Source: an uncultured Clostridia bacterium
GTDB taxonomy: Bacteria; Bacillota; Clostridia; TANB77; CAG-508
NCBI GenBank assembly: GCA_947626885.1
Contig: CANQTX010000001.1
Location: 30,741-94,740 of the forward strand
DNA length: 64,000 bases
Direction of reading: 5' to 3'
A program made the translations under genes and the position numbers. Positions 45,406 to 61,981 of this stretch are shown piece by piece. How positions within the stretch are numbered: position 1 is the first letter of the stretch; the number at the start of each line of letters is the position of its first letter. Below the pieces are notes generated by a model. The model was not told the origin of the DNA. It searched no databases and worked only from the letters and a program-made list of their open reading frames with translations.

Positions 45406-45542
45406 GATTTCTCCTAACCATTTAAATCTATTTCTATTTGATACCAATTTTTATATACTAGGGTATATTTCCAAAAATAAAATGATATGGACATACGCCA
45501 TGCACATTACGTATAATAAACATAACAATAAAATAAAACACA

Positions 45543-45585: not shown

Positions 45586-45651
45586 GTATTTAATATACGT
45601 AAAATAATCCGTTCTAACAGCATATCTAAAAGTTGCTAATGCAATTTGCTT

Positions 45652-46629
45652 TTACATGTTTTTTTTGATAAATTCTTTCATATGTATTACTAATTTCAAT
45701 AACAATATATGTTTTTCGCGCGCTAATTTGATACAAATTTGTTGAAATTTTGTCATATAAGAAATAACTGTATTTTCATACAAATGAGGATATTTTTTTT
45801 CACAAATCGTAATATGTTCTATCAATTGTTTATTCGTTTTTTTTAATTTCACTAAAGTAATAAGATTTGCATAAAAATATTCTTTAAGAAAAATCGCTTC
45901 TACTACTACTGGATATCTCGTTATCAGTTGTTTCTCTACAAAAGCTACTGCTTGGCTAGAATTTTCTAAAGATAAAGTTTGTTTTGTATGCATAATAGAA
46001 TTTTCATTCATAACATAATGATACAAAGCTTTATTATAATAATAAATTTTTTCACAATAAGACATTGCTATCTTGTTAAATACCATATCTTCACATCTTT
46101 TAAGATTGGGAAATCTAATGGCTTCATTTTTTATTATTGTTGATAAATACACTTTACACCATGTACTACCTGTACTATGTATCATGGCATTTTCTTTGGA
46201 TATGATACCATCTTCTGTTTTTAAGTAAGATTTTTGATAAATATTACGATGATTTTTAGTTTCAAAGTAATAATCAAAAATAATACATTCTGGTTTTTCT
46301 TTGTCAATAATATTGGCCAATTGCGCCAATGTATTTTCTTCAAAATAATCGTCTGCATCTAAAAAAGTAATGTAATTTCCCACTGCATTATCTATTCCTC
46401 TATTTCTAGAAAGGCCTTGCCCTAAATTTGTTTCATTTTTTATAATTTTCATCGAAAATAGGGCCGTTTTTTGGTACATTATTAACTCTTCTAATAAATT
46501 ATCATTTGATTGGTCTTCTATAAAAATTGCCTCGAAATCTTTTAATGTTTGCTTTTCTAAAGATCGCAAACATCTTTCCATTTGATTAAAATGATTAAAA
46601 CACGGAATAATAATTGAAAATTTCGGCAT
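45652..46629 (-). CDS. family-2 glycosyltransferase
   Basis: 325-aa ORF with FSIIIPCFNHFNQMERCLRSLEKQT, EDQSNDN and FLDADD motifs. Confidence 0.88.
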   Translation of the reverse strand: MPKFSIIIPCFNHFNQMERCLRSLEKQTLKDFEAIFIEDQSNDNLLEELIMYQKTALFSMKIIKNETNLGQGLSRNRGIDNAVGNYITFLDADDYFEENTLAQLANIIDKEKPECIIFDYYFETKNHRNIYQKSYLKTEDGIISKENAMIHSTGSTWCKVYLSTIIKNEAIRFPNLKRCEDMVFNKIAMSYCEKIYYYNKALYHYVMNENSIMHTKQTLSLENSSQAVAFVEKQLITRYPVVVEAIFLKEYFYANLITLVKLKKTNKQLIEHITICEKKYPHLYENTVISYMTKFQQICIKLAREKHILLLKLVIHMKEFIKKNM

Positions 46630-46638
46630 ACTTTTCTC

Positions 46639-47487
46639 CTATTTATGAAATTTTTTCTTTTTCGGTACATGACTTCTTCTAGCAAAATGTTGATAAATAA
46701 ATCCTCTTAAACTATTCGGACAAACAACCTGTACAATAAAACGGACTAACATGTTATATAAATACTGTGGCACTGTGGTAATGTGATTTTGTAACATATA
46801 TTTTTGTGTAGAAGCTGTTATTTTAAAGTATGCAATACCACCTCTTCTTTGGTACATTTCTCTTCCTACTCTAGCATAAACAAGTACTTCATCCAAATTC
46901 TTAAATTTACAATGATGCAAATACATACGTAACCATAAATAATAATCTTCATTCGATTGCCATTTCATATAGCTACCACATTTTTCAACATCCTCTTTTT
47001 TAAACATAACCGTCATGTGGTTTAAAGGACATCTAAATTTCATATATTTACAAATTTCTTTGTGTTCTAGAGGTACTTCTCGTATGCCAACTTTATTTTC
47101 TACAGCATCAATAAATTCTTGTATATATCCTCCTACAACACTTAATGTTTCATCTGCTTCAAATGCTTGTAATTGCTTTTCAAACCTGTTTAAAACACAA
47201 ATATCATCTGCATCCATTCGCGCTACCAATGGATAAGAACATTGTTTCAACCCCTCTCTCAATGCTATTCCTAGCCCTTGATTTTCCTCCAACTTAACAA
47301 TTTTTAGCGTAGGCTCATTTTTTATGTACATATCAATTATTTGCTTTATATCTTTCGGAATAAATCCGTCAATAACTAATACAATTTCATTTGGTTTCAT
47401 AGTTTGATAAAGAATACTATCCAAAGATTGTCTTAAATATTCTGGATGGTCATTTTTATAAACTGACATTAAAACCGAAAATTTCAT
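46639..47487 (-). CDS. family-2 glycosyltransferase
   Basis: 282-aa ORF with FSVLMSVYKNDHPEYLRQSLDSILYQT, VIDGFIP and RMDADD motifs. Its start codon overlaps the upstream stop codon (TAATG). Confidence 0.88.
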   Translation of the reverse strand: MKFSVLMSVYKNDHPEYLRQSLDSILYQTMKPNEIVLVIDGFIPKDIKQIIDMYIKNEPTLKIVKLEENQGLGIALREGLKQCSYPLVARMDADDICVLNRFEKQLQAFEADETLSVVGGYIQEFIDAVENKVGIREVPLEHKEICKYMKFRCPLNHMTVMFKKEDVEKCGSYMKWQSNEDYYLWLRMYLHHCKFKNLDEVLVYARVGREMYQRRGGIAYFKITASTQKYMLQNHITTVPQYLYNMLVRFIVQVVCPNSLRGFIYQHFARRSHVPKKKKFHK

Positions 47488-48173
47488 TATTTTTCCTCCG
47501 CTTTTAGTAATGCTATCGCTTCTTTTTGTTTAACTTCATATTCTTTCTGTGTAATTTGTTTTGTGCGCAATAAATAATCTCCTAAGTCTTCCGCTGTTGC
47601 TAAGTTGATAGCTGAAATGTCTTTTTGGGCTAACACCTTTGTTATTGTTAAACCAAGAATTTTCATATCGTTTAAAAAAGTTATATTTTCTATATATGCT
47701 AAATCATATCCCAATTTCTCTTCCCATGATATAGCATTTCTACCATTTATTTGTGCTAGTCCCGTTAACCCTTGTTTCACAGAGTGTCTCTTTTTTTGTT
47801 CTTCTGTCATAAATACCAAATCTTTTACTAACTGCGGTCTTGGTCCTACTAAACTCATATCTCCCTTTAGAACATTCCATAATTCAGGTAATTCATCTAA
47901 ACTCGTACTTCTTAGAAATCTTCCCAACTTTGTTAAACGTAACTCATCCGATAATAATTCTCCATTTTCATCTCTTTCATCTGTCATGGTACGAAACTTA
48001 TATAAAGTAAAAATACGATTATCTTTTCCTGGTCTTTTTTGTTTAAAAAGTATAGGACTACCTAATTTTATTTTAATGAAAATTGCCAATAAGAGATACA
48101 CAGGAGCCAATATCATCATGGTAAAAATACTCATCAAGCAATCTAGTATTCTCTTTCCATATTTTTGATACAT
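47487..48173 (-). CDS. small monotopic undecaprenyl-phosphate sugar-phosphate transferase (PglC/WbaP-C-terminal family; initiating enzyme)
   Basis: 228-aa ORF with a single N-terminal hydrophobic hairpin, and PILFKQKRPGK, YKFRTM and LDELPELWNVLKGDMSLVGPRP motifs. Confidence 0.9.
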   Translation of the reverse strand: MYQKYGKRILDCLMSIFTMMILAPVYLLLAIFIKIKLGSPILFKQKRPGKDNRIFTLYKFRTMTDERDENGELLSDELRLTKLGRFLRSTSLDELPELWNVLKGDMSLVGPRPQLVKDLVFMTEEQKKRHSVKQGLTGLAQINGRNAISWEEKLGYDLAYIENITFLNDMKILGLTITKVLAQKDISAINLATAEDLGDYLLRTKQITQKEYEVKQKEAIALLKAEEK

Positions 48174-48183
48174 AACTCTATCC

Positions 48184-49320
48184 TCATTTATTAAAACATG
48201 TTTTTATGATTTGAATTATTCGCTCCATGTCTTCTTCTGTATTTTTTGTATCTGATGGTAAGCATACACCTCTTGTGAATAAATCTTCGGATACACTTTT
48301 TTCTGTTGCATCATTATGTTGAAAAAAAGCATATGGTTTCATAAGTGGTTGTAAATGCATTGGTTTCCAAACCAATCTTGCTTCTATATTTTCTTTCTCT
48401 AAAGCATTAACTACTTCTAATGGCTTTACTCTTGCTTCTTTTTTAATTGTCATAACAGATAACCAGTAATTTGATTGTACCTCTTTACTTTCTGTTAACA
48501 TCTCGATTTCTGGAAGATCTTCAAAAGCTTTTTGATAGATTTCAAAAATTTTTCTCTTCTGTCTGATTCTCTCTTCTAGCACTTTAAGTTGCCCTCTTCC
48601 GATACCTGCCAATACATTACTCATTCTATAATTATATCCTATTTGTGAATGTTCATAATATGGTGCTGGATCTTTGGCTTGTGTTGACCAAAATCTTACC
48701 TTTTCCAGCATTTCAGTATGATGAGAAATAAGCATACCACCACTTGTGGTCGTGATAATTTTATTACCGTTAAAGGAAAGCGCACCAAGTTCTCCAAAAG
48801 TACCTGTTAATTTTCCTCGATACGTTGTTCCTAAACTTTCTGCAGCATCTTCTAATACTGGCACTTGATGTTGCTTGCAAATTTTCATAATTTCTTCTAA
48901 ATTACCAACCTGACCATATAAATGTACTAAAATAACCGCTTTCGGTTGATATTTTTTAAATGCTTTTTGTAGCGCTATAGGACTCATATTCCAAGTGTCT
49001 GGTTCAGAATCAATCAGTACCGGAATAGCATTTAAATATATAATAGGATTTACACTGGCTACAAAGGTAAGATCTGAAACAAAAACAATATCACCTTTAC
49101 CAACATTAAGTGCTTTTAATCCTAAATGAATTGCTGCAGTTCCACTAGACAATGCTACTGCTGCATTGATATTCATATACTGTTTCATTTCTATTTCTAA
49201 TTGATTGATATTTTCTCCTACAGTAGATAACCAATTGGTTTGAAATGCTTCTTCTATAAATTGTTTCTCATAACCTTCTTTTGACATATGTGGCGATGCT
49301 AAATATATTTTTTTCTTCAT
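48184..49320 (-). CDS. DegT/DnrJ/EryC1-family PLP-dependent sugar aminotransferase (PglE-like)
   Basis: 378-aa ORF with SSGTAAIHLGLKAL and SFNGNKIITT (PLP lysine) motifs and a YNYRMSNVLAGIG block. Confidence 0.9.
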   Translation of the reverse strand: MKKKIYLASPHMSKEGYEKQFIEEAFQTNWLSTVGENINQLEIEMKQYMNINAAVALSSGTAAIHLGLKALNVGKGDIVFVSDLTFVASVNPIIYLNAIPVLIDSEPDTWNMSPIALQKAFKKYQPKAVILVHLYGQVGNLEEIMKICKQHQVPVLEDAAESLGTTYRGKLTGTFGELGALSFNGNKIITTTSGGMLISHHTEMLEKVRFWSTQAKDPAPYYEHSQIGYNYRMSNVLAGIGRGQLKVLEERIRQKRKIFEIYQKAFEDLPEIEMLTESKEVQSNYWLSVMTIKKEARVKPLEVVNALEKENIEARLVWKPMHLQPLMKPYAFFQHNDATEKSVSEDLFTRGVCLPSDTKNTEEDMERIIQIIKTCFNK

Positions 49321-49326
49321 AGATAC

Positions 49327-51207
49327 CTACGATTGTCCTCCTTTTGCATTATATGTAGGGACTACTTGTTTCATTATTTTTTCTAATTCCTGTTTATCAA
49401 CATGTTCTTTTTCTGTTAATTGCTGTAATATGGCTATTTTTTTATCTATATCACTAATACTTATACCAATTGGTTCAGCTATAAAAATTTTTTCATGACT
49501 TGTCTTTTCTAATTCTTCTTCCTGCATGGTTAGTTCTTCATAAAGTTTTTCTCCTGGTCTTAATCCTATTATCTTAATTTCGATATCCTTATTGGGTATT
49601 AATCCAGAAAGTTTAATTAGTGTTTCTGCTAAATCATAAATTTTTACAGGTTTTCCCATGTCTAAAACAAATATTTCTCCACCTTTAGCATAAGTACTTG
49701 CCTGTAAGATTAATCCAATAGCTTCCGGTATTGTCATAAAAAATCTTGTAATATCTTTATGTGTTACAGTAACTGGCCCCCCCTCCAAAATTTGTTGTTT
49801 AAACAATGGAACAACAGAACCATTACTCTCTAGCACATTACCAAATCTAACAGCCACAAATTCCGTTTTACTAATTCTATCTTTTGCTTGTACCATCATT
49901 TCACAAATCCTTTTAGTGGCTCCCATAATACTTGTTGGGTTAACTGCTTTATCTGTTGAAATAAGAACAAAACGTTTTACTTGATATTTATCACAAATAT
50001 TAATTACATGATAAGTACCTAGTACATTATTCTTTATTGCTTCTAATGGACTGTGTTCCATTAATGGAACATGTTTATGTGCTGCAGCATGAAACACTAA
50101 ATAAGGATGATAAGTAGAGAAAATTTCTTCCAAACATTTTTCATCTTTTACACTACCTACAATTGCTTCTATTTTCATCTCTGGGTATTGAGATTTTATT
50201 TCTAATTCAATATGATATAAACTATTTTCATAAATGTCTAACATAATCAATTTTTCAGGTTGGTATTGTACAATTTGCCTACAAAGCTCTGAACCAATAG
50301 AACCGCCACTACCAGTTACTAATATTGTTTTATTTTTAATCAGGTTTTCAATATTATGATTATCTAATGCTATGGTATCTCTTCCTAAAATATCTTCTAT
50401 TTCTACATCTCTTAAATTATCTAACAAATTTTTACCTTTAATAATTTCTTTCATGCCTGGTAAAATTCTGACTTTTGCCTTTGTTTGTTGACAAATATTT
50501 AAGATTTCTTTTTTGTTTTTATTATCAATTCTAGCAATAGAAAAAAATATAACATCTACATTCTGTTTTTCACAAATTTTAATAATATCATTTCTATTTC
50601 CAATAATTTTAACGCCTGCTACAACCAAATTCAGTCTTTTTTTGTTATCATCTATAATACCAACAATATTATATTTTTCTTTTAAATTTGCATTAATTGT
50701 TTTTATAATCTCATGCGCTGCATTTCCTGCACCAATAATAAGTAAATTTTTTCTTTCTGTCTCGTTAATGGTAGGAATTCCTTTATTTACTATATCTGCT
50801 ACTAAAATATATCTTATAATAATTCTATAAGATACCATCATTAAACCAATGAAAATACCCGCTAAAATATTTAACTTTGTAGAAGCAGTTCCTAAGTGAA
50901 ATATGGCATCTAATATGGATACTAATATAGAGGAAATTAAACAAAATATAATGTAACATACATAATCTCTTCCCTCTTCATAACGAATAATATGATGATA
51001 AATTTTTGTTATGCGAAATATAACTTGATATACAACAGCAGATGTTATTGTTGTTATAAACAATCGTTTCACATAATAGGCATTAAAATTGAAAACAGAA
51101 TCTGTTATCAAAACAGTTCCTAAATAATATGCAATAGCAATACAAAAGATGTCCACAATAGATAAAATAAAATTTCGATATCTACTAAGTCTTTTAATAA
51201 TTTCCAA
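49327..51207 (-). CDS. membrane-anchored UDP-N-acetylglucosamine 4,6-dehydratase (CapD/PglF/WbpM family)
   Basis: 626-aa ORF. Four N-terminal TM helices, then an SDR core with VTGSGGSIGSEL, AAAHKHVP and STDKAVNPTSIMGATKR motifs. Confidence 0.9.
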   Translation of the reverse strand: MEIIKRLSRYRNFILSIVDIFCIAIAYYLGTVLITDSVFNFNAYYVKRLFITTITSAVVYQVIFRITKIYHHIIRYEEGRDYVCYIIFCLISSILVSILDAIFHLGTASTKLNILAGIFIGLMMVSYRIIIRYILVADIVNKGIPTINETERKNLLIIGAGNAAHEIIKTINANLKEKYNIVGIIDDNKKRLNLVVAGVKIIGNRNDIIKICEKQNVDVIFFSIARIDNKNKKEILNICQQTKAKVRILPGMKEIIKGKNLLDNLRDVEIEDILGRDTIALDNHNIENLIKNKTILVTGSGGSIGSELCRQIVQYQPEKLIMLDIYENSLYHIELEIKSQYPEMKIEAIVGSVKDEKCLEEIFSTYHPYLVFHAAAHKHVPLMEHSPLEAIKNNVLGTYHVINICDKYQVKRFVLISTDKAVNPTSIMGATKRICEMMVQAKDRISKTEFVAVRFGNVLESNGSVVPLFKQQILEGGPVTVTHKDITRFFMTIPEAIGLILQASTYAKGGEIFVLDMGKPVKIYDLAETLIKLSGLIPNKDIEIKIIGLRPGEKLYEELTMQEEELEKTSHEKIFIAEPIGISISDIDKKIAILQQLTEKEHVDKQELEKIMKQVVPTYNAKGGQS

Positions 51208-51319
51208 TAATAATTCCTCTTTGCTTTTATTTTTATTCTATTTATTTTATCATTATATATCTTTTTTTTCAAGTAAAATTTATGGTCCCATGATAGAATC
51301 TTATCCCATATTTCAATAT

Positions 51320-51353
51320 AAAAAACTTCTATAAAAATTTATAGAAGTTTTTT
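51320..51353 (-). terminator. intrinsic terminator after ChW gene 1
   Basis: Minus strand: aaaaaacttctataaatttttatagaagtttttt, i.e. an aacttctata/tatagaagtt stem followed by a U-run. Confidence 0.75.
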
Positions 51354-51401
51354 ATGATTTCTTTTTAAGTGCAACCTATTTTTAGTAATTTTAATATTTA
51401 T

Positions 51402-53117
51402 TTATCGATAGCGTGCTTCATAAGTCTTTTCAAAGTCTTTTGCTTCTACTTTAATGGCACCATTTTCTGTAAGTTTACTATCATCAACTTTTACACCTGT
51501 TGCTTTGTCATACCAACCATCAAATTGATAGCCATTTTTTGGCTTAGGCGCTTCTACAGTAATGTGTCCTTTTTCATACACCTCAGCTCTATAACAGGTA
51601 TAAATGATATTGGAACCATTTTGATAGGGTTGAGATTTTTCTATGTCCGTCACAAAATAAACTATACATAAACTAGAAGTACCCTTTGGTATAGATTCTC
51701 CACATACAGTACATTTACCTTGTTCATTCCAAGTATGGCCTGCTCCTACTTTATCAATTTCCTGTGTTGTCTGAATTTTTTGACAAATAAGACATTGTTT
51801 TCTTTTAAAACTATTTTTGCAAGGCGTTGCTGCTGTAGGCGCTATATATTGCCATTCATGATTTTTCTTAGGGATTATTTTTGAAGGGATTTCAACGCCA
51901 CAATAGATACATTGCATTGTTTCCGTTCTACCATATGTTTCACAAGTTGCTTCTATGCCATCTTTTTTTCCGACATACTCATGATTTAACATTGGTATTT
52001 CTGTTACATCACTGATATTACCACATCTTGTACAATGTTTTGATTTGCTGCCATTTTCTGTACATGTTGCTTTTTTATCGATGGTATATCCTTCATTTTC
52101 TTGCGTATAAATATGCCCTAAAGCTGGTTTTCCTGCTTCTTCTTTTACAGAATTATCTATTAAACCACACATCGTACAAGCATAAACAATTTTTCCATTT
52201 TCTGTACATGTTGGCTCTATTTCTACTTTTTCATATCGATGTTCTTTTAATTGAGGAACATAACGAAACCATTCCTGTTTACAAACAGTACATTGTGTAA
52301 TATTAGTTCTTCCAAATTTTTGACAAGTAGCCTCTTCATCTGGCAATTGAATAATGGTATGTACACCATTGGCTGGAATTATTTCTGTTTCTACTTTATT
52401 GCAAATAGAACATTTTCTGATTTTTTCACCACTTTCAACACATGTTGCTTGTTTGGTAATTTCCCAGTCACCAAAAATATGTGTTATGTGTTCTGTTGGC
52501 ACTAATACTATTTGAAGTGCTTCCATTCTTTTACCTTGCCATCTAGTACCAGCAAAATTTCCATCCGTTGGTTCTTCTGTTGTTACCATAGAGAAATCTC
52601 CTGCTTTCACCCAATTCATCCAGCCATATCCTTGCGAATGAGCACGATACCATAATTCATATCCATTAAGGCCTTCCACTGCAATTTGAAAAGCTTCCAT
52701 TCTCTTGGATTGATACATGGTACCAGCATAAGTACCTTCTGCTGGTTCTCCTGAAACTTGAACTTTTTGAGCATCTACCCAGTCCATCCATCCTTCTTTT
52801 TGAACATGAGCGCGATATTTTAATGTTATACCTTCTGGAACAACAATTTGAAGAGCCTCCATTCTTTTGGCTTGCCATCTTGTTCCAACAAACATTGCAT
52901 CCGCTGGTTCTTTTTCTGTTAGAGTCTCACTACTTTGTGTATTAATCCAATTCATCCAACCTTCTTTTTGAACGTGAGCACGACAAGTGATTTGTGGTTT
53001 ACTTATGACATCTTCACTAGCATATACCATTACTGGTAACATAATAGAAAACATCATAATAGTAATTAATCCTAGAATAAAACCGTGTAAACTTTTTTTG
53101 CAAAAATTTAACTCCAT
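51402..53117 (-). CDS. secreted protein: signal peptide, 3 ChW repeats, about 6 four-Cys modules, C-terminal Listeria-Bacteroides-type repeat
   Basis: 571-aa ORF with signal peptide ...MLPVMVYASED. ChW consensus YRAHVQKEGWMNW...GTRWQAKRMEALQI occurs three times. CX4GX5-6CX2C modules follow. The tail contains NGYQFDGWYD. Confidence 0.9.
   Translation of the reverse strand: MELNFCKKSLHGFILGLITIMMFSIMLPVMVYASEDVISKPQITCRAHVQKEGWMNWINTQSSETLTEKEPADAMFVGTRWQAKRMEALQIVVPEGITLKYRAHVQKEGWMDWVDAQKVQVSGEPAEGTYAGTMYQSKRMEAFQIAVEGLNGYELWYRAHSQGYGWMNWVKAGDFSMVTTEEPTDGNFAGTRWQGKRMEALQIVLVPTEHITHIFGDWEITKQATCVESGEKIRKCSICNKVETEIIPANGVHTIIQLPDEEATCQKFGRTNITQCTVCKQEWFRYVPQLKEHRYEKVEIEPTCTENGKIVYACTMCGLIDNSVKEEAGKPALGHIYTQENEGYTIDKKATCTENGSKSKHCTRCGNISDVTEIPMLNHEYVGKKDGIEATCETYGRTETMQCIYCGVEIPSKIIPKKNHEWQYIAPTAATPCKNSFKRKQCLICQKIQTTQEIDKVGAGHTWNEQGKCTVCGESIPKGTSSLCIVYFVTDIEKSQPYQNGSNIIYTCYRAEVYEKGHITVEAPKPKNGYQFDGWYDKATGVKVDDSKLTENGAIKVEAKDFEKTYEARYR
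52500..52991 (-). repeat. coding region for the triple ChW repeat of gene 1 (residues about 43-206)
   Basis: Three tandem 51-59-aa units, each with YRAH-x-Q...GW-x-W...(A/V)GT-x4-KR-x-EA-x-QI. Confidence 0.85.
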
Positions 53118-53181
53118 GCCTTTTCCTCCTTTGCATATCTTATCTTATACTTTAAGTCTTTTCAAACCCTCTTACATTATC

Positions 53182-53210
53182 AGTATAGCACGTTTTAGCA
53201 CTATAAGCAA
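53182..53210 (-). promoter_or_regulatory. sigma-A promoter of ChW gene 1 (extended -10)
   Basis: Minus strand reads TTGCTT - 17 nt (ending TGC) - TATACT. It is homologous to the promoter of ChW gene 2. Confidence 0.6.
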
Positions 53211-53276
53211 TGCATTCTACAATCTAATTCAGCATAAAACTTCAAACATGAAAAAAACTTTTATTATCTTAATTTT

Positions 53277-53310
53277 AAAAATTCCAGTGATTTCTTTCAC
53301 TGGAATTTTT
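53277..53310 (-). terminator. intrinsic terminator after ChW gene 2
   Basis: 10-bp perfect stem attccagtga/tcactggaat with a 6-nt loop, followed by a U-run on the minus strand. Confidence 0.75.
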
Positions 53311-53331
53311 ATACTTTTTTATTATACTCGA

Positions 53332-55479
53332 TTATTCTACTATTATATTCATTTTTACTTTTGCTTGTTCTAAAGCTTGTTGTACTGCTTCTGTATCTTC
53401 TAAGTCAGCAATAGTTAGTACACCTTCTGCAAAGGCATTGACTAAATCTGATGCACTTGCTGGATGCGCTTTTAATAAGTCATTCCAATAATTCTGTAAA
53501 TCGCTAATAGCATCCTTTTTTGCATTAAATACCGTTTCAACATCTTCCAATGCCTTCATTGCTGCATCAGTAGCTTCTTCTACTTCTTCTTTAGTTTCTG
53601 CTGCAGTAATTGTCGCATCAACAGTTGTTTTTATTTCATCTATTTTTTTATTAGTAGCATTTTTTAGTGGGTCTGACCCTGCCTTGTCTGTTTTTTCCTT
53701 TAGTGCTGTAACGTTTTCGTTTATTTCATTTTTCGCATTATCTTTAATATCAGGTAACACTACTTTATCCATTTTTTCTTTTGCTTCTTTTACTACTGTT
53801 TCTACTTCTTCTGGTGTTGCTGCTTTATTGATTGCATCTATTGCATCTGACAAGATTGGTCCAAACTGTTGTAATTTGTCTTCTCCATCTTTGTTAGGAT
53901 ATTGTTCTTGAAGGTCAAGCCAATACACTTGTATTTCATCTGATCCTGCTTTTTGCATATCAAATATAGCTTTTGCCTGTTCCATAGTTTCTGTTGCTTT
54001 CTTTACTGCTACTTCTATTTCCTCTGGTGTTGTTGCTTCATTAAGTACTTTCTCTGCTTCTGCTTTTGCTGCTTCTATTTTTTCTTTTAATGATGTTTGT
54101 AGAGGTGTATTTTTATTATCTTCATCTTGAATTCTACTGTCTTTTTTTATACTATCATACGTATCTTTTAAAGTAGCTGTTCCTAGTTCTTTTGCTTCAG
54201 AAAAAATTTGCTCATCAGATTTAATAGCTTCAAGTGCAGCATTTGCATCTGCTAGTGTTTGCTCTACTACTTCTATTGTTTCTGCATTTTCAATAGCATC
54301 ACACCATGAATTTAACATTTCTTCTAATGCATCAAAATCAAATGTTCCGCTATTTACTTTTTGAATCCATGCATCTTGAAATTTATTAATGGCATTGCTC
54401 TTGGCTTCTCTTAAAGCTTTCTCTGCTGCTTCTCTTTCTGCTATTTCAGTATCTGTTTCAATAGCATCCATTGCTACTTTAGCATCTTCGATTACTTTTG
54501 CTACTTCTTCTGGTGTTGTTGCTTTATCAAGTGCATCTAATGCATTAACTAATTCTGCTTCTAATGCATCACCATTTTTTTCGCATTGTGGCATTAATTC
54601 ATTAATATAATTCACTAAATCTTCCATTGCTTGATTTTTTACATCTATTAACACTTTCGTGTTATTTGGAATTGCATCTACTTTTGCTTTTGCTGCTTCT
54701 AATGCAGATTGAACATCTTCAAAAGAAGTAGCATCTTTGATAATTTTCTCTCCTTCAGTAATAGCGTTATTATAAGCTTCCGCACTGAAAGAATAGTCCT
54801 CTGGATTATGATATCCATTTAATGTTTCAATTGCTTTTTGTTTTGCTTCATCTAAAAGATTCACTAAAACAATTTGAAAAGCTTCCATTCTTTTTGATTG
54901 ATACATGGTGCCGGCATAAGTACCTTCTGCTGGCTCTCCATTTCCGATGGTAGCTACATCAATTGCTTTTACCCAGTCCATCCATCCTTCTTTCTGAACA
55001 TGAGCACGGTATCTTAACTCATAACCTTCTGGAATACCTTCAACAGCAATTTGAAGTGCCTCCATTCTCTTAGCTTGATACATAGTACCAGCGTAAGTAC
55101 CTTCTGTTGGTTCCCCTGAAACTTGATTTTTTTGAGCGTCTACCCAGTCCATCCATCCTTCTTTTTGAACATGAGCACGATATTTTAATGTTATACCTTC
55201 TGGAACAACAATTTGAAGTGCTTCCATTCTTTTGGCTTGCCATCTTGTTCCAACAAACATTCCATCCGCTGGTTCTTTTACTAGCGCTTCATTACTTCCT
55301 GTCTCAACCCAATTCATCCATCCTTCTTTTTGAACATGAGCGCGACAAGTGATTTGTGGTTTACTTATGACATCTTCATTAGCATATACCATTACTGGTG
55401 ACATAATAGAAAATATCACAGCAACTATTAATCCTACTATAAACACATGTAAACCTTTCTTATAAAAATTTAATTCCAT
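53332..55479 (-). CDS. secreted protein: signal peptide, 3 ChW repeats, long array of alpha-helical repeat modules
   Basis: 715-aa ORF. The N-terminal 146 aa are nearly identical to gene 1. About 500 aa of Ala/Glu/Lys-rich helical repeats follow, with a recurring A-T-T-P-E-E-V-x2-V-x3-K-x2-M motif. Confidence 0.9.
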   Translation of the reverse strand: MELNFYKKGLHVFIVGLIVAVIFSIMSPVMVYANEDVISKPQITCRAHVQKEGWMNWVETGSNEALVKEPADGMFVGTRWQAKRMEALQIVVPEGITLKYRAHVQKEGWMDWVDAQKNQVSGEPTEGTYAGTMYQAKRMEALQIAVEGIPEGYELRYRAHVQKEGWMDWVKAIDVATIGNGEPAEGTYAGTMYQSKRMEAFQIVLVNLLDEAKQKAIETLNGYHNPEDYSFSAEAYNNAITEGEKIIKDATSFEDVQSALEAAKAKVDAIPNNTKVLIDVKNQAMEDLVNYINELMPQCEKNGDALEAELVNALDALDKATTPEEVAKVIEDAKVAMDAIETDTEIAEREAAEKALREAKSNAINKFQDAWIQKVNSGTFDFDALEEMLNSWCDAIENAETIEVVEQTLADANAALEAIKSDEQIFSEAKELGTATLKDTYDSIKKDSRIQDEDNKNTPLQTSLKEKIEAAKAEAEKVLNEATTPEEIEVAVKKATETMEQAKAIFDMQKAGSDEIQVYWLDLQEQYPNKDGEDKLQQFGPILSDAIDAINKAATPEEVETVVKEAKEKMDKVVLPDIKDNAKNEINENVTALKEKTDKAGSDPLKNATNKKIDEIKTTVDATITAAETKEEVEEATDAAMKALEDVETVFNAKKDAISDLQNYWNDLLKAHPASASDLVNAFAEGVLTIADLEDTEAVQQALEQAKVKMNIIVE
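54862..55353 (-). repeat. coding region for the triple ChW repeat of gene 2 (residues about 43-206)
   Basis: Three tandem units with the YRAHVQKEGWM-x-W core. Confidence 0.85.
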
Positions 55480-55545
55480 GCATTTTTCCTCCTTTGCATA
55501 TTTAATCTTATACTTTTAAGTTTTTTCAAACTTTCTTACATTACC

Positions 55546-55574
55546 AGTATAGCACGTTTTTATATCGTAGGCAA
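55546..55574 (-). promoter_or_regulatory. sigma-A promoter of ChW gene 2 (extended -10)
   Basis: Minus strand reads TTGCCT - 17 nt (ending TGC) - TATACT. Confidence 0.6.
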
Positions 55575-55657
55575 TGTATTTTTCAATCTAATTTAGCATA
55601 AGTCATGCTATTGAGAAGGAAAATATAAGAAACTTTTATATGTTTTGTCATTTATGC

Positions 55658-55690
55658 AAAAAAATACCAGTGAAATCACTGGTATTTTTT
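55658..55690 (-). terminator. intrinsic terminator after ChW gene 3
   Basis: Stem taccagtg/cactggta with a 4-nt loop, flanked by an A-run and a U-run. Confidence 0.75.
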
Positions 55691-55708
55691 CTATACTATA
55701 CTATTTTA

Positions 55709-58207
55709 TTATTTTACTGCAGCTTCATAAACATTAATCATCTCTTCAAGAGTTGTAGCATTGTTTATTTCTCTCCTTGCAGTTTCTTTTACAGAAGCTT
55801 CTTTATCAACAAGTGCCACATCATTAATTAATGTAATTAATTCTGTTTTCAAAGCTTTTCTTAATTCACTTAATAAAGTAGCTTCTTTTGTTTCATAATC
55901 AGCCCAAGAATTAGCTGAATCCATAGTAGCTGATACTTTGTCTAGTATAGGACTTATAGTAGTAAGTGTTTTGTAAGCTCCACCTTTACCATCTTTTAGA
56001 ATTTCTTTGTTTAATGCAGTTACTTCTGCAAGTTCATTAAATTTAGTAGTCATTCTTCCTCTTGCAAATTCTATGTTATATAAATTAGCTTGAGAAGTAA
56101 AATTACTAATTAAAGTTTTTAAAGCATCTTCACTTGTATATGTGCTTGAATCACTACTATCATCAAGAGCTTTTGATAAATTAGCTTTAGTTGTTTCAAG
56201 AGCTTCATATGCTGATTTTGATAAAACTTTATCTGTATCAACTTTTGCAACTAAATTTTCATATTTACCTAATAATTCTAATAAATATACTCTTAATGCT
56301 TCATAAATATTTTTCTTTTGATCGTTACGTATAGCCAATAATTCATCAGCAGTTTCAATTGTATCAATCTTTGCTATTTCTGCATCAATTGTATCTTGAA
56401 TAGCAGTAATATATTTTTCTGTTGATTCTTCTGCTGTTGTGCTTTGTAATGTTGTATCTGCTATTGTTGCTACATATTTATTAATTTCTCTTCTTGAGTT
56501 ACATGCTGAACGACATACTTGTTTTACAGTTGCTATATTGGCTTTAGCAGTCGTTAAAGCCGTTTCAACTTCTCCTTCCGTTGTAGCACTTTCAATTGTT
56601 TCATAAGCTGCTGTTAATGCATTTTGTAATCTCTCTGTTTCAGCATCTGTATATTCAGGTCCATAATCTTGTTTTACTGATTTAACTGCATTTATATACT
56701 CAGTAACAAGATCATCTATTTTTTCCATTTTAGCATTCCCAGCTAACCAAGATTTTTCATAATCCGCTTTTACAACTGTTTCTGCATTTGCAGCTTGCGT
56801 TTCTGAAAATATTTTTTCTAATTCAGCTTTAGCTTCTGCTATCACTTCTTCTTCAGCATCTGTTAGCTCTTCTACTGCACTAATATACGTATCATTATTT
56901 GTTACAAGTATTTGATCCCATTTTGCTTTATAATTAGCTAATTCATATAAGTCATCTATAGCACTTTCAGCTGTTTCTACTGCTGAACTAACTCCATCAG
57001 TATCTTCTGCAGCATTAATAGCTTCTTGTGCATCAGAAACTACTTTAGCTACTTCTGCTTGTATAGCTTCATCTAATGTCACACCTTCCTCAAGTGGATT
57101 TTCTGTAGACTCATATGATGCAACTTCTTCAACTGCTTCAGTTTTAGCTTTCATTAAATTATATTCAGCTTCTGTTAATCTTCCATTAACAGCATCCTCA
57201 TATAATTCAATTACATCAGCTACATCTGTTGATGTTGCTATTGCATTACGCACAGTATTATATTGTTCTTCTGTTAATATTAATCCACTATGTGCTCCAT
57301 CATCATATAATTTCTTTAAATTCTCTGCTGCATAATCTTGCGCTGTTGCTAATAAATTTCCTTTTGCATCTTTTACAATTGTTTCAGCTTCTTTTATTGT
57401 TTCTGCTTGTGCTAAATCTGATTGTGCTTTATCTATAACATCTTTAAATTTAGATAATTCAGCATATTTTGTATATGAACCTATTTCATATCCATTTAAT
57501 TTAGAATCATTTGCTAACCACTCATTAAAACTGTCTACTACTTCTTCTACTGTTTGTGGTCCAGCTGGTGTTACTTTTACTAATGCAATTTGGATTCCTT
57601 CTACTCTTTTTGCTAATCCCTCTGTTCCTGCATATGTTCCTTCTACTGGGTCAGCTGATGTTACAGTAGATAAATCTCCTGCTTTTACCCAGTTCATCCA
57701 TCCATATCCTGATCCTTGAACATGTGCTCTATACCATAATTCGTATCCGTCTAATCCTTCTACTGCGATTTGGATTCCTTCTACTCTTTTATATAGTCCT
57801 TCTGTTCCTACATAAGTTCCTTCTGCTGGGTTTCCTGCTGGCATTGTGTTTCCTGCTGTTACCCAGTCCATCCATCCATATCCTTGCCCTTGTACGTGTG
57901 CTCTATATTTTAATGTTACACCTTCTGGTACTGCAATTTGGATTCCTTCTACTCTTTTATATAGTCCTTCTGTTCCTGCATAAGTTCCTTCTGCTGGGTC
58001 TGTAGCTACTATATCACTTACTGAGCTTACTACTCCTGGTTTTTCCCATCCATATCCTTGCCCTTGTACATGTGCTCGATATGTAATTATTGGTGCATTT
58101 GTTTCATCAGCTTGTACAATATTTGGTATTATCGCAGTTATTCCCATCATCGTCACTACACTAATTAAAATAATGCACATGGTTTTTCTTAAAAATTTAC
58201 TGTACAT
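55709..58207 (-). CDS. secreted protein: signal peptide, 3 ChW repeats (QGQGYGW variant), long array of alpha-helical repeat modules
   Basis: 832-aa ORF with signal peptide ...IIPNIVQADE. YRAHVQGQGYGW...AGTEGLYKRVEGIQIA occurs three times. About 620 aa of helical repeats follow. Confidence 0.9.
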   Translation of the reverse strand: MYSKFLRKTMCIILISVVTMMGITAIIPNIVQADETNAPIITYRAHVQGQGYGWEKPGVVSSVSDIVATDPAEGTYAGTEGLYKRVEGIQIAVPEGVTLKYRAHVQGQGYGWMDWVTAGNTMPAGNPAEGTYVGTEGLYKRVEGIQIAVEGLDGYELWYRAHVQGSGYGWMNWVKAGDLSTVTSADPVEGTYAGTEGLAKRVEGIQIALVKVTPAGPQTVEEVVDSFNEWLANDSKLNGYEIGSYTKYAELSKFKDVIDKAQSDLAQAETIKEAETIVKDAKGNLLATAQDYAAENLKKLYDDGAHSGLILTEEQYNTVRNAIATSTDVADVIELYEDAVNGRLTEAEYNLMKAKTEAVEEVASYESTENPLEEGVTLDEAIQAEVAKVVSDAQEAINAAEDTDGVSSAVETAESAIDDLYELANYKAKWDQILVTNNDTYISAVEELTDAEEEVIAEAKAELEKIFSETQAANAETVVKADYEKSWLAGNAKMEKIDDLVTEYINAVKSVKQDYGPEYTDAETERLQNALTAAYETIESATTEGEVETALTTAKANIATVKQVCRSACNSRREINKYVATIADTTLQSTTAEESTEKYITAIQDTIDAEIAKIDTIETADELLAIRNDQKKNIYEALRVYLLELLGKYENLVAKVDTDKVLSKSAYEALETTKANLSKALDDSSDSSTYTSEDALKTLISNFTSQANLYNIEFARGRMTTKFNELAEVTALNKEILKDGKGGAYKTLTTISPILDKVSATMDSANSWADYETKEATLLSELRKALKTELITLINDVALVDKEASVKETARREINNATTLEEMINVYEAAVK
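57578..58087 (-). repeat. coding region for the triple ChW repeat of gene 3 (residues about 41-210)
   Basis: Three tandem 53-61-aa units. The DNA of units 1 and 2 is visibly near-identical (ggattccttctactcttttatatagtccttctgttcc recurs). Confidence 0.85.
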
Positions 58208-58242
58208 AAATTTTCCCCCTTCTTTAAAATTATTACAGTAAT

Positions 58243-58272
58243 ATTATAGCACCATTACCAAATATTGGTCAA
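58243..58272 (-). promoter_or_regulatory. sigma-A promoter of ChW gene 3 (extended -10)
   Basis: Minus strand reads TTGACC - 18 nt (ending TGC) - TATAAT. Confidence 0.65.
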
Positions 58273-58446
58273 TGGATTTTCTAACCTGTTTAAGGTTAAA
58301 CCAAGGAATTTTACTTCCAATTTTTTCCAATTTTTAAAAAGCGTAGAAAATACTATGATACAGGTTATTTCACGGCAATATTAGAATCTATTTTTCCTAT
58401 AAAAAAATAAAAATTTTATACACTAAATTGGCATATGATATGAATC

Positions 58447-58487
58447 AAAAATCAGCGAAAATTTAAAACAAATTTTCGCTGATTTTA
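58447..58487 (-). terminator. intrinsic terminator after the rfb operon
   Basis: 16-bp perfect stem aaatcagcgaaaattt/aaattttcgctgattt with a 5-nt loop, followed by a U-run on the minus strand. Confidence 0.8.
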
Positions 58488-58512
58488 GGTTATATTTTCT
58501 TTTTTAATTGGC

Positions 58513-59487
58513 CTACACATTTTCTAAATATTCAGGATGTGCTAAATACCAGTCGATAGTCTTAACAATACCATCTTTAAACATCGTTTTAGGTGCCCAC
58601 CCAAATTCATTTTTTAATTTTGTTGGGTCAATGGCATAACGATAATCATGTCCCTTTCTATCTTCTACAAATGAAATTAGGCTTTCAGGCTTTTCCAGTC
58701 TTGCTAATATTAATTTAACAATTTCAATATTTCTTTTTTCATTATGTCCTCCAATATTATATCGCTCACCTTTTTTCCCTTGATGTAGAACAATATCTAT
58801 TGCTTCACAATGGTCTTCTACATATAACCAATCTCTAATGTTTAATCCTTCTCCATATACAGGTAGTGGCTTATCTTGAAGTGCTAAAGAAATCATATGT
58901 GGAATTAATTTTTCATGATGTTGATATGGTCCATAATTATTAGAACAATTTGTTACGCAAATATTCATTTTGTAAGTTTCTGCATATGCAAAAGCAATTA
59001 AATCTGATGAAGCTTTAGAAGCAGAATAAGGACTATTAGGTTGAATAGGAGAAGTTTCTGTAAAATATCCTTCTTCTCCTAATGTTCCATATACTTCATC
59101 TGTTGAAATATGTACAAAACGATTTGGGCTGCCTTCTCCCCAATACTGTTTGGCAGCTTCCAACAAAGTGTGTGTACCAACGACATTCGTTTGTGTGAAA
59201 ATAAAAGGATTTTTTATACTATTATCTACATGAGACTCTGCAGCAAAGTGAACAATCGCATCTATATCATATTTTTTATATGTTGCCAATACAAAATCAA
59301 AATCACAAATATCTCCTTGTACAAATGTAATTTTATCTTTAATAGCATCTAAATTATGTAAATTTCCCGCATATGTTAATTTATCAAATACAATAATATG
59401 ATATTTTCCTTCATATTTTTTTACCATAAGCTCTGCAAAATTGGCTCCTATAAATCCTGCAGCACCTGTTACTAAAATGTTCTTCAT
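58513..59487 (-). CDS. rfbB: dTDP-glucose 4,6-dehydratase
   Basis: 324-aa ORF with ILVTGAAGFIGANF, the YSASKASSD catalytic triad region and FVHISTDEVYG. Confidence 0.95.
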   Translation of the reverse strand: MKNILVTGAAGFIGANFAELMVKKYEGKYHIIVFDKLTYAGNLHNLDAIKDKITFVQGDICDFDFVLATYKKYDIDAIVHFAAESHVDNSIKNPFIFTQTNVVGTHTLLEAAKQYWGEGSPNRFVHISTDEVYGTLGEEGYFTETSPIQPNSPYSASKASSDLIAFAYAETYKMNICVTNCSNNYGPYQHHEKLIPHMISLALQDKPLPVYGEGLNIRDWLYVEDHCEAIDIVLHQGKKGERYNIGGHNEKRNIEIVKLILARLEKPESLISFVEDRKGHDYRYAIDPTKLKNEFGWAPKTMFKDGIVKTIDWYLAHPEYLENV

Positions 59488-59543
59488 TTCTTTTTTTCTC
59501 CTTTAAAACTTTTTGGTTTCACTCATTTTATCTTATCAAAATC

Positions 59544-60128
59544 TTATGATAAATTTTGAAACAAGTCCGTATCTTTTAATTCTTTTAAACTAGGCCATAA
59601 TGCATCTTTCTCAGAAGTTATATATTCTTCTGGTTTCATTCCTGGTACTTCTGGCCAAACAATACCAATTTCTTCATCATTCCACTTTAGACCACCCTCT
59701 GCCTCATGATTATAAATATCATCACACTTGTAGGTAAATTCTGCTTCATCACTTAGTACTAAAAATCCATGTGCAAATCCTTTAGGTATCATAAACATTC
59801 TTTTATTTTCTTCTGAGATAATCACACCTTCCCATTTTCCATATGTTTTACTGCCTGGTCTTAAATCAACTGCTACATCAAATACTTCTCCTTTTAAGCA
59901 TCTTACTAATTTTGCCTGCGTATTTTCTTTTTGAAAATGTAATCCTCTTAATACACCTTTTTTAGATTTTGATTGATTATCTTGTACAAAATCATTTGTA
60001 ATACCTATTGCTTCAAATTCTGGTTTACTATAGGTTTCCATAAAATAACCTCTATTATCTCCAAAAACAGTTGGTTCAATAATATATACGCCTTCAATAG
60101 ATGTATCTATTCTTTTAAATTTTCCCAT
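59544..60128 (-). CDS. rfbC: dTDP-4-dehydrorhamnose 3,5-epimerase
   Basis: FGDNRGYFMETY, RGLHFQ and PKGFAHGF motifs. I place the start at the ATG at 60126-60128 (MGKFKRIDT, SD gaggaa). The ORF-track 5' extension overlaps rfbA. Confidence 0.93.
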   Translation of the reverse strand: MGKFKRIDTSIEGVYIIEPTVFGDNRGYFMETYSKPEFEAIGITNDFVQDNQSKSKKGVLRGLHFQKENTQAKLVRCLKGEVFDVAVDLRPGSKTYGKWEGVIISEENKRMFMIPKGFAHGFLVLSDEAEFTYKCDDIYNHEAEGGLKWNDEEIGIVWPEVPGMKPEEYITSEKDALWPSLKELKDTDLFQNLS

Positions 60129-60153
60129 AATCAAATTCCTCACTCTTTCTTTT

Positions 60154-61074
60154 TTATTGACCTGCATCAAACAAATCACTTTCATATATGGCTTTATATT
60201 GTTTAAAATCTTGTTCAATAATCTTCTTTAAATATTTTCCATATTCTGTTTTTTTGTATTTTTCGGCTTCTTCTAATACTTGTTCTTTACTAATCCATTC
60301 ATTATGATAAGCAATTTCCTCTAAACAAGCAATTTGTACACCTTGCCTTAGTTCAATAGCTTTTACAAAATCTGCTGCATCAGACAATCTATCTGGTGAA
60401 CCCGTATCAAACCAAGCATAACCATTTCCTAAAGGAATTACTTGCAATTTTCCTTGCTGCATATATACTTTATTAACATCGGTAATTTCTAATTCTCCTC
60501 TTTCTGAAGGTTGAATAGATTTTGCAATTTCTATTACGGTATTGTCATAAAAATAAATTCCTGGTACTGCAAAATTTGATTTAGGCACTCTAGGTTTCTC
60601 TTCAATTGACAATGCTTTTCCTTCACTATCGATTTCTACTACACCATAAGAAGTGGGATCTGCCACTTGATATCCAAAAATAATACCGCCTTCTTTTAAA
60701 TGGCTCGCTGCTTTTAATACTCTTTCAATTCTAGAACCATAAATCATGTTATCTCCTAAAATTAAGGCAACATTATCATCACCAATAAAGTCTTCTCCTA
60801 AAATAAAAGCATCTGCTAATCCTACTGGCTTCTCCTGAATTTTATAAGTAAATTTCATGCCTAATTTAGCACCGCTTCCTAATAAATTTTCAAAAGCTGG
60901 TAAGTGAGTTGGTGTTGAAATAATGAGTACCTCTTTAATTCCTGCCATCATTAGTGTAGATAAAGGATAGTATATCATTGGTTTATCATATACGGGTAAC
61001 ATCTGTTTTGACACTGCTAATGTTACTGGATACAGTCTTGTAGCACTTCCGCCTGCTAAGATAATTCCTTTCAT
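60154..61074 (-). CDS. rfbA: glucose-1-phosphate thymidylyltransferase
   Basis: 306-aa ORF with MKGIILAGGSATRLYPVT, SKQMLPVYDKPMIYYPLS and LGDNMIYG motifs. Confidence 0.95.
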   Translation of the reverse strand: MKGIILAGGSATRLYPVTLAVSKQMLPVYDKPMIYYPLSTLMMAGIKEVLIISTPTHLPAFENLLGSGAKLGMKFTYKIQEKPVGLADAFILGEDFIGDDNVALILGDNMIYGSRIERVLKAASHLKEGGIIFGYQVADPTSYGVVEIDSEGKALSIEEKPRVPKSNFAVPGIYFYDNTVIEIAKSIQPSERGELEITDVNKVYMQQGKLQVIPLGNGYAWFDTGSPDRLSDAADFVKAIELRQGVQIACLEEIAYHNEWISKEQVLEEAEKYKKTEYGKYLKKIIEQDFKQYKAIYESDLFDAGQ

Positions 61075-61114
61075 ATTTTATTCCTCCTACTTTTATTTTT
61101 ACATACAATTTATA

Positions 61115-61981
61115 TTACATATTTTTTAATTCTTCTTTTAAATACTTCTCTAATGCTACTTCATAAGAATCCGGATAAATTCCTACAGAATGTAATTTTT
61201 CTTTAGATAATTGACTATTCGTTGGTCTATCGCTAGATTGCGGATACATTTGCTTATATTCTTGTGAAGTAATCGCTTTTACCTTTGTTGCAATATGAGC
61301 TATTTCAAAAATTTTTCTTGTAAATGCACACCATGTTGTAAATCCTTCGTTGGTAGAATGATAAATACCATATTCTGGTTCTTTTTCCATAATAGCTTCT
61401 ATAATTTCACATAATGTTGTGGTTGATGTAGGACTTCCATGTTGATCATCTACAACACTAATTTCTTCTTTTTCTTTAGATAATTTTAACATGGTTTTTA
61501 CAAAATTTTTACCACCTAGCCCATATAACCATGCAGTTCTTAAAATATAGTACTTTTCTGCCTTTTTTGCATTTTCTTCTCCCACTAATTTGGTTCTACC
61601 ATAAGCACTAACAGGATTTGGCATCATATCTTCCGTGTAAATTTTTTCTACTGATAAATTTCCTGGAAAAACATAATCTGTACTAATATGAATCAATGTT
61701 GCATCTTCCTGCTTAGCAGCTTCTGCAATATTAGCTACCGCTGTTCCATTAACAGATAACGCTAAATCTTCATGCGTTTCACAACCATCTACATTAGTAT
61801 AAGCTGCACAATTGATAATATAATCTGGTTTTACTTCTTTTGCTTTTGCTAAAACAGCTTCTTTGTTGCATATATCTAATGTTTCTATGGTGGTTCCTTC
61901 TACATCATATATTTTTTCTAGTCGCTCTTTTAGTTCTCCACCAAGCATTCCATCCGCTCCAATTAACAATACTTTCTTCAT
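61115..61981 (-). CDS. rfbD: dTDP-4-dehydrorhamnose reductase
   Basis: 288-aa ORF with VLLIGADGMLG, NCAAYTNVD, ISTDYVF and YGRTKLVGE motifs. Confidence 0.93.
   Translation of the reverse strand: MKKVLLIGADGMLGGELKERLEKIYDVEGTTIETLDICNKEAVLAKAKEVKPDYIINCAAYTNVDGCETHEDLALSVNGTAVANIAEAAKQEDATLIHISTDYVFPGNLSVEKIYTEDMMPNPVSAYGRTKLVGEENAKKAEKYYILRTAWLYGLGGKNFVKTMLKLSKEKEEISVVDDQHGSPTSTTTLCEIIEAIMEKEPEYGIYHSTNEGFTTWCAFTRKIFEIAHIATKVKAITSQEYKQMYPQSSDRPTNSQLSKEKLHSVGIYPDSYEVALEKYLKEELKNM

Follow-up and report, generated by a model that had tools for sequence, protein, structure and literature searches.

The genes for SLH anchors are genetically linked to the synthesis of their ligand (csaAB and the pyruvylated secondary cell wall polymer, SCWP). 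The three tandem SLH motifs form one pseudo-trimeric module that binds secondary wall polysaccharide; the three tandem motifs of CWB2 are essential and bind polysaccharide II (PSII), the polymer locus lies immediately beside the cwp genes, and the CWB2 family includes peptidoglycan-modifying enzymes (PMC4973711). CWB2 genes are described as lying beside or inside a wall-polymer synthesis locus (PMC4973711; PMC5065235). Here we analyze a stretch of 64,000 nucleotides (nt) from an uncultured Clostridia bacterium (assembly GCA_947626885.1, contig CANQTX010000001.1, positions 30,741 to 94,740; hereafter the window), in which three consecutive genes, ChW-A, ChW-B, and ChW-C, encode proteins with a signal peptide and a triplet of ChW repeats and stand within a wall-polysaccharide locus. 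Across genomes, ChW genes lie beside rhamnose synthesis (rml) and other glycan genes more often than expected, and the ChW triplet may be an anchor that docks on the polymer made by such neighbors.

ChW proteins of Clostridium acetobutylicum were reportedly treated by Nolling in 2001, and ChW is said to have been named as a wall-associated repeat since that year. Among the major modules of this kind in Gram-positive walls, ChW alone is listed with neither a ligand nor a structure, and the idea that it works in triplets is attributed to Sullivan 2007 (PMC5817068). An earlier note on this DNA, made from the sequence alone, had stated that the ChW ligand is not established, and the literature agrees, giving it as not determined (PMC5817068). 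Our literature search found no report that ties ChW to rhamnose or to a wall polysaccharide.

Three exported proteins with an N-terminal ChW triplet

Each of the three proteins contains exactly three ChW repeats (Pfam PF07538; 66-98 bits against a cutoff of 22, E 3e-18 to 3e-28), and in each the triplet directly follows an N-terminal hydrophobic, signal-peptide-like segment. This segment is single in each protein and ends with VQA before D or with VYA before N or S. The family motifs (a GW dipeptide, H-V-Q, A-G-T, and R-x-E-A) are present in every repeat, and W20, W75, G43, G97, T98, and H126 are among the invariant positions in an alignment of 35 triplet sequences (A1; a tighter alignment, A2, was taken for pattern design because A1 was too diverse). 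In the repeats of the window, about 13 extra residues form a loop that separates the GW..W motif from AGT; elsewhere among the 35 aligned triplets this loop occurs only in P0001 and P0002. The closest database triplets and relatives are about 50% identical to those of the window. No open reading frame (ORF) in the window other than these three contains ChW.

Besides ChW, the Pfam signals in the three proteins are a weak DUF1542 in ChW-B and a weak Flg_new in ChW-C. SLH, CWB2, LysM, GW/SH3_8, and choline-binding (CW_binding_1) domains have no Pfam match at E<=0.01 in any of the three; neither an LPxTG-like motif ([LIV]Px[TSA][GAN]) nor a C-terminal hydrophobic segment occurs in their sequences, and NCBIfam has no name for them. 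The earlier note had read three consecutive signal-peptide proteins, each with an N-terminal ChW triplet and with none of these other attachment signals, and the ORFs and the domain and motif scans confirm both readings. The triplet is thus the only recognizable attachment module, and on this architecture and by analogy with other anchors its role as an anchor is well supported and probable.

We propose that the three paralogous proteins would be exported by the Sec pathway and held noncovalently on the cell surface by the N-terminal triplet, with the C-terminal passengers projecting outward as adhesin-stalk-like helical rods (ChW-A and ChW-B) or as a Cys-rich array with a Listeria-Bacteroides repeat (ChW-C). 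The docking site would be a secondary wall glycopolymer linked to peptidoglycan and made here by the surrounding locus, analogous to the docking of CWB2 triplets on PSII and of SLH triplets on pyruvylated SCWP, and, through co-location, a glycan locus that is exchanged would bring its binder with it. As a whole, this is the best explanation we can offer, and we hold it tentatively, as one that may well be right without being probable. Much the same caution applies to the ligand taken by itself: a wall glycopolymer made by the neighboring genes is plausible, with a gene-neighborhood signal that is recurrent, not universal. Candidate ligand polymers are the product of the rhamnan arm of the locus and that of the Wzx-dependent arm, which abuts the ChW block.

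ChW genes recur beside rml and glycan genes

The cross-genome sample took one genome per GTDB species and comprised 75 ChW-triplet loci from the genomes of 64 species, 1.21 Mb in total. The ORFs of these loci were searched with the proteins of the window; a true rml gene was one matching at 150 bits or more within 10 kb of ChW, and the single-copy units rlmN-stp-prkC, rpe, nth, and pta-ackA of the window were the controls. True rml genes were found within 10 kb in 13/75 ChW loci, against 0.5 to 1.5 expected. Control units occurred in 3/75 loci, which matches the random expectation of 0.5 to 1.5 per unit, and the rml excess corresponds to an odds ratio of 20.8 versus the controls (p 1e-7; Poisson P <=7e-9). 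At least three glycan genes were present in 21 of the 75 loci, and in 22 once LCP, MnaA, LicD, and GT4 queries had been added. The co-localization of ChW genes with rfb and wall-polysaccharide loci above chance, as envisaged by the earlier note, is therefore real in this sample. A metagenome replicate gave rml in 8/76 loci and no controls.

The rml-linked ChW loci belong to four lineages, namely CAG:440-like Clostridia (5 species), Saccharibacteria (6 species), Eubacteriales ELA076, and one Lachnospiraceae metagenome-assembled genome (MAG). RmlB of the two CAG:440-like loci that were checked (L019 and L054) is 75-78% identical to that of the window. At further loci, ChW stands beside Bac_transf, Wzm/Wzt, or TagF clusters. 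The distances can be very short: the ChW gene of L016 ends 4 bp before Bac_transf, and that of the Saccharibacteria locus L025 lies, with a 10-bp gap, between an LCP ligase and a series of TagF-like, MnaA, LicD, GT4, GT2, and rmlACB genes.

The ChW proteins of Saccharibacteria (L023-L025, L039, L047, L049, L056) are about 520-580 amino acids (aa) long, with 5-6 ChW repeats detected in the C-terminal part and an N-terminal half without assignment; the gene separates the LCP ligase from a teichoic-like/rhamnose polymer cluster, a synteny kept in seven species. ELA076 (L026/L027; JBAWXZ010000002.1, 175-207 kb) has nine consecutive ChW genes with 3 or 6 repeats each, followed by DUF7657-rmlA-C-B-D. 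The last gene of this array, the sole one scanned against Pfam, encodes GH25 and Big_7, and the array resembles the Clostridioides difficile cwp cluster beside its polymer locus. A different form is seen in many small secreted proteins (about 177 aa; P0006-P0103; L044, L065, L075) in which a single ChW triplet is all that follows the signal peptide. In diderm Selenomonadaceae these often come in tandem pairs, and glycan genes do not lie nearby.

The passengers of the linked ChW genes are mutually unrelated (Amidase_3, GH25, CotH, YkuD, CHAP, M14, transglutaminase, helical rods, and Cys repeats), and ChW is therefore the sole common denominator of these genes. This variety also bears on another reading of the window, in which the three proteins are substrates of the locus, i.e., surface or S-layer glycoproteins O-glycosylated with its rhamnose-containing glycan. 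The slg clusters of Geobacillus and Paenibacillus have an S-layer structural gene beside rml and glycosyltransferase genes. The window, too, has surface-protein genes directly beside rmlDACB, an ATP-binding cassette (ABC) transporter route with Wzt_C, and a 260-aa membrane protein (42577-43359) with a weak, below-cutoff match to O-antigen_lig (E 0.009). However, no Wzy_C-type transferase matches Pfam in any window ORF of at least 150 aa and no other oligosaccharyltransferase reaches Pfam thresholds in the window, glycan-linked ChW proteins elsewhere are enzymes with unrelated passengers that share ChW rather than a glycosylated passenger, and close relatives have the same glycan genes without these three proteins. 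Because no oligosaccharyltransferase was found, we rank the glycosylation of these proteins low, as very unlikely.

The proteins might instead be released rather than kept on the wall of their producer, with ChW directed at some other target, for example a protein partner, the surface of another cell, or a glycan from the host or the diet. The small triplet-only proteins of diderm Selenomonadaceae and the presence of ChW proteins in epibiont Saccharibacteria would fit such a role. Yet ChW is mostly fused to enzymes directed at the wall of the producer itself and to phage lysins, and the passengers resemble adhesin stalks, which need an anchored base. We regard release as improbable.

The triplet as a structural unit

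The AlphaFold2 (AF2) model of one triplet, that of ChW-B, is a single compact all-beta domain (pLDDT 94, pTM 0.89). Of the roughly 120 ChW ORFs found at 77 loci, nearly all have 3, 6, 9, or 15 repeats. Judging from these multiples of three and from the one-domain model, the triplet is the predicted structural unit. A sequence search of the PDB with the triplet gave no match, and a Foldseek search of the PDB with the model gave no fold relative (best E 0.065, TM below 0.25). Since neither sequence nor fold points to homology with SLH or CWB2, ChW would be an analogue of those anchors and not a member of either family. The triplet fold does match the putative wall-binding part of five predicted phage lysins (BFVD, E 1e-7 to 1e-10).

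A lineage-specific insertion and the peptidoglycan alternative

The closest relatives of the locus were chosen through the 90% cluster of the window's RmlB, without reference to ChW, which gave 12 places in about four locus configurations. In two of them (L159 and L162), the blastn alignment is collinear with the window from 62090 to 58525 and resumes from 51273 to 47632, where 51273 is the -35 of the capD promoter, and CapD, DegT, and Bac_transf come immediately after rmlB. This break in collinearity shows that the three ChW genes are a lineage-specific insertion of 7.25 kb. The junction recurs in an independent metagenome assembly (L170), where the same ChW-A start follows rmlB. No flanking direct repeats of a mobile element were found; repetition is limited to the ChW units, the helical tail repeats, and the duplication shared by ChW-B and ChW-C. 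The three genes being an insertion, the adjacency in the window was gained independently of that in the CAG:440-like clade, which argues for recurrent recruitment but also fits insertion at a hot spot.

The nearest ChW homologues of the same architecture, from rabbit-gut Clostridia MAGs (P0001), lie in a conserved slot (L001, L003, L004, L014, L069) made up of NlpC/P60-SH3_3, ComEC, the ChW protein, a BofC-like protein of about 210 aa, and ClpB. P0001 itself appears to be split by a frameshift into 250 aa and then 366 aa.

Several observations weigh against docking on a locus-made glycopolymer. A ChW gene near rml was found in 0/12 of the places sampled through RmlB at least 90% identical, and the NlpC/P60-to-ClpB slot of the nearest homologues has no glycan genes. 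The conserved linkage in related genomes supposed by the earlier note consequently stands in part, being seen in four lineages with unrelated passengers and absent from the 12 RmlB-sampled places and the comEC-clpB homologues. No glycan cluster accompanies ChW at 53/75 loci. Counted as four events, the enrichment is modest at the lineage level (P 0.002-0.06), and the metagenome replicate was not counted as independent lineages because it mostly resampled the CAG:440-like clade. The locus probably makes at least two polymers, since both an ABC-dependent and a Wzx-dependent arm are present. Junctions of polysaccharide loci are recombination hot spots, and an insertion there could therefore be neutral. 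Finally, the ChW-labeled cell wall-binding domain (CBD) of the Lactobacillus casei phage CL1 binds better after trichloroacetic acid (TCA) treatment (PMC10610939), which suggests peptidoglycan as the ligand of this lysin CBD.

Peptidoglycan is indeed the main rival ligand. The triplet would bind it directly, as LysM and SH3b do, and the proteins would still be wall anchored; their position in a glycan locus would be incidental, a product of envelope-gene clustering and of insertion at recombination-prone junctions. The majority of the ChW proteins encoded at related loci are enzymes acting on peptidoglycan (GH25, Amidase_3, CHAP, YkuD, M14), and the CL1 CBD is similar to an L. casei CBD whose target is amidated D-Asp cross-bridges (PMC10610939). 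The strain-specific insertion, the NlpC/P60 hydrolase next to the nearest homologues, and the many ChW loci outside glycan clusters all agree with this alternative. The lysin evidence is, however, distant from the proteins discussed here, as CBDs of the AM12 and CL1 type are only remote relatives of canonical ChW. The CBD of the Lactococcus phage AM12 (cAM12), which anchors proteins, was assigned to ChW by manual alignment only and was not recognized by Pfam, and cAM12 was not recovered in the peptidoglycan-digest fraction (PMC6700490). Among 50,697 phage records, a tblastn search with the window triplet and a canonical triplet reached only 2, both from uncultured phages, and no cultured-phage lysin. 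Binding to peptidoglycan also leaves unexplained the roughly 20-fold rml excess in four lineages with non-orthologous ChW genes, and the non-enzymatic ChW proteins of the window show the same adjacency. We see peptidoglycan as a possible but doubtful ligand and the glycopolymer as the likelier one.

Transcription units, paralogy, and variable tails

The coordinates of the three genes and of their signals are given in Table 1. All three genes have a good ribosome-binding site (RBS), and all four terminators combine a hairpin with a U-run. With its extended -10 promoter and its hairpin terminator, each ChW gene therefore forms its own transcription unit, as the earlier note had read it (TGn boxes in the sequence; folds with z -6.5 to -8.2). 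Promoter-like sites in the region are no commoner than in shuffles (32 versus 34), so the promoter calls rest on position and on conservation between ChW-B and ChW-C. The description of the three as major coat proteins, also made in the earlier note, is unsupported: only the quality of promoters and RBSs bears on abundance, and the codon usage of the ChW genes is like that of their neighbors, with a GC content at third codon positions (GC3) of 0.10-0.21 in all genes that is uninformative on expression or foreign origin. Rfam recognizes no RNA family in the window.

TABLE 1 Positions of the ChW genes, their transcription signals, and the surrounding locus in the window
Feature	Position	Strand	Description
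ChW-A gene, 832 aa	55709..58207	minus	Signal peptide aa 1-33; ChW triplet aa 34-212 (nt 57572-58108); long helical A/E/T-rich tail
ChW-B gene, 715 aa	53332..55479	minus	Signal peptide aa 1-33; ChW triplet aa 35-206 (nt 54862-55377); helical repeat tail, weak DUF1542 signal
ChW-C gene, 571 aa	51402..53117	minus	Signal peptide; ChW triplet aa 35-208 (nt 52494-53015); Cys-rich CxxC repeat region; weak C-terminal Listeria-Bacteroides (Flg_new) repeat
Predicted ChW-A promoter	58243..58272	minus	TTGACC-18-TGcTATAAT, 11/12 matches, extended -10
Predicted ChW-B promoter	55546..55574	minus	TTGCCT-17-TGcTATACT, extended -10; region duplicated upstream of ChW-C (families D11, D14)
Predicted ChW-C promoter	53182..53210	minus	TTGCTT-17-TGcTATACT, extended -10; -35 matches only 3/6; 83% identity to ChW-B promoter region
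Terminator hairpin after rmlB	58448..58486	minus	-19.6 kcal/mol, z -7.3
Terminator hairpin after ChW-A	55658..55691	minus	-18.2 kcal/mol, z -6.5
Terminator hairpin after ChW-B	53276..53311	minus	-18.7 kcal/mol, z -8.2
Terminator hairpin after ChW-C	51318..51355	minus	-15.9 kcal/mol, z -7.5
7.25-kb block absent from closest relatives	51274..58524		Insertion at the junction of rmlB and capD; blastn of L159 and L162 against the window
rmlD, rmlA, rmlC, rmlB (dTDP-L-rhamnose synthesis)	58513..61981	minus	Upstream of the ChW block
capD promoter (51244-51272), CapD/PglF-like dehydratase, DegT aminotransferase, Bac_transf initiating transferase	47487..51272	minus	Downstream of the ChW block (genes 51207-47487)
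Rest of the wall-glycopolymer locus	12713..47487	minus	GT2 genes, DUF6077, Wzx flippase, GT61, TagF-like, Wzm, Wzt with Wzt_C, three tandem-GT2 proteins, GtrA, DUF7657/DUF7654, membrane proteins without assignment

ChW-B and ChW-C share 80-97% DNA identity over the promoter, the 5' untranslated region, the signal peptide, and the first two repeats (52494-53237 against 54862-55601). Divergence begins in the third repeat and leads into unrelated tails, a cassette-like pairing of a constant anchor with a variable tail. This shared 5' part followed by complete divergence suggests that the family grew by duplication and tail swapping. ChW-A is a more distant paralog, with about 31% identity to ChW-B over 620 residues.

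The tail of ChW-B is modeled as all-helical (pLDDT 86), and a fold search with it returned no significant match, only a partial, nonsignificant resemblance to the adhesin stalks EbhA and BibA. A protein identical to ChW-C (P0120) is encoded on an NCBI contig of 119.6 kb. ChW-C has 24 Cys residues in the whole protein, and its tail (51402-52790) is built of units of the form 'ATC.ENG....C..C', an array for which neither Pfam nor NCBIfam holds a model. Homologous Cys-rich repeats occur in dozens of metagenomic proteins (P0121-P0198) together with choline-binding, dockerin, cohesin, LRR_5, and Big_2/Ig domains and wall hydrolases. Such exchange of the Cys-rich passenger between attachment modules elsewhere suggests that the ChW triplet occupies the anchor slot in ChW-C.

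The surrounding wall-polysaccharide locus

The ChW genes stand exactly between rmlDACB and the polysaccharide-initiation genes; the assignments of the flanking genes agree with the earlier note on this point. The locus of about 50 kb has the makeup of a rhamnose wall-polysaccharide locus, with rmlA-D, export genes (Wzm, Wzt with Wzt_C, and Wzx), at least 14 GT2-type genes, GtrA, and a TagF-like gene, and housekeeping genes (rlmN, stp, prkC, rpe, nth, pta, and ackA) lie beyond it. An LCP ligase was not found within the window.

Two proteins of the locus are paralogs with DUF7657/DUF7654, one upstream by the rml genes (62085-63962; 625 aa) and one at 19987-22113 (708 aa), and homologues stand directly beside rml operons in Clostridia and Saccharibacteria (L027, L054, L056, L060, L076, L158-L167); DUF7657/DUF7654 may be a membrane enzyme of rhamnose-polymer assembly. 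The Wzx arm contains a DUF6077 protein (348 aa) next to the 260-aa membrane protein mentioned above (42577-44449 for the pair), and DUF6077 directly follows rmlB in the relatives L158 and L166, which makes these two proteins candidates for a polymerase or ligase. Four further ORFs (604, 696, 423, and 417 aa; 13654-18985 and 31214-32467) have no Pfam or NCBIfam match, and NCBIfam likewise names none of the other locus proteins that lack an assignment. Of these four, the one of 423 aa shows a weak likeness to flippases and is kept beside ChW genes in L019, L050, and L063.

Comparison with known systems

For ChW, the present analysis offers a candidate ligand class, a confident fold model, and loci in multiple lineages where binder and polymer genes adjoin. 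If the glycopolymer is the ligand, this would account for the way in which many uncultured gut Clostridia and Saccharibacteria present autolysins and adhesins on their surface, and it would provide a new targeting module for surface display and for engineered lysins.

Rhamnose-rich loci are familiar from streptococci (Rgp), lactococci (cwps), and enterococci (Epa). The locus described here resembles them in that rmlABCD is accompanied by Wzm/Wzt, GtrA-type side-chain modules, and numerous GT2 genes, with a Wzx-dependent arm as the second branch, and it differs in that no LCP ligase was found within the window. To our knowledge, the Rgp, cwps, and Epa loci have not been described as containing genes for surface proteins that carry a dedicated wall-binding module.

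The proteins themselves share the ChW family (PF07538) with those of C. acetobutylicum and with ChW-type lysin CBDs; triplet organization had already been suggested for ChW (PMC5817068), and in lysins ChW serves as the wall-binding part. They are set apart by the loop of about 13 residues, by an N-terminal triplet that precedes a long non-enzymatic tail, and by a closest relative that is only about 50% identical.

Three tandem motifs per module are also found in the SLH/SCWP system of Bacillus anthracis (csaAB), whereas no SLH domain was detected in the three proteins, no pyruvyltransferase was found in the window, and the predicted fold is different. Another parallel is with CWB2 and PSII of C. 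difficile, which likewise combine a triplet-of-repeats anchor, structural or adhesin passengers alongside peptidoglycan enzymes, and adjacency to glycan loci, the adjacency being seen at some of the ChW loci and the noncovalent anchoring being putative for ChW. Unlike CWB2, the ChW triplet is predicted to be all-beta, with an unrelated fold and no relative in the PDB, its linkage here is an insertion without a counterpart in the closest relatives, and genes for an S-layer, SecA2, or a maturation protease are missing.

With some reserve, we consider it possible that, beside SLH and CWB2 and independently of them, ChW constitutes a third type of triplet anchor that holds on to secondary wall polymers, with a fold new to the PDB and a rhamnose-containing or related ligand, used across Clostridia, Lachnospiraceae, and Saccharibacteria for wall-remodeling enzymes and adhesin-like fibrils, and with genes repeatedly recruited beside rml and glycan loci, where the binder would move along with its ligand. 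What is possibly new, then, is the pairing of ChW with a glycopolymer as a variant of the principle known from SLH and CWB2, and the three proteins of the window are new members of a known repeat family.

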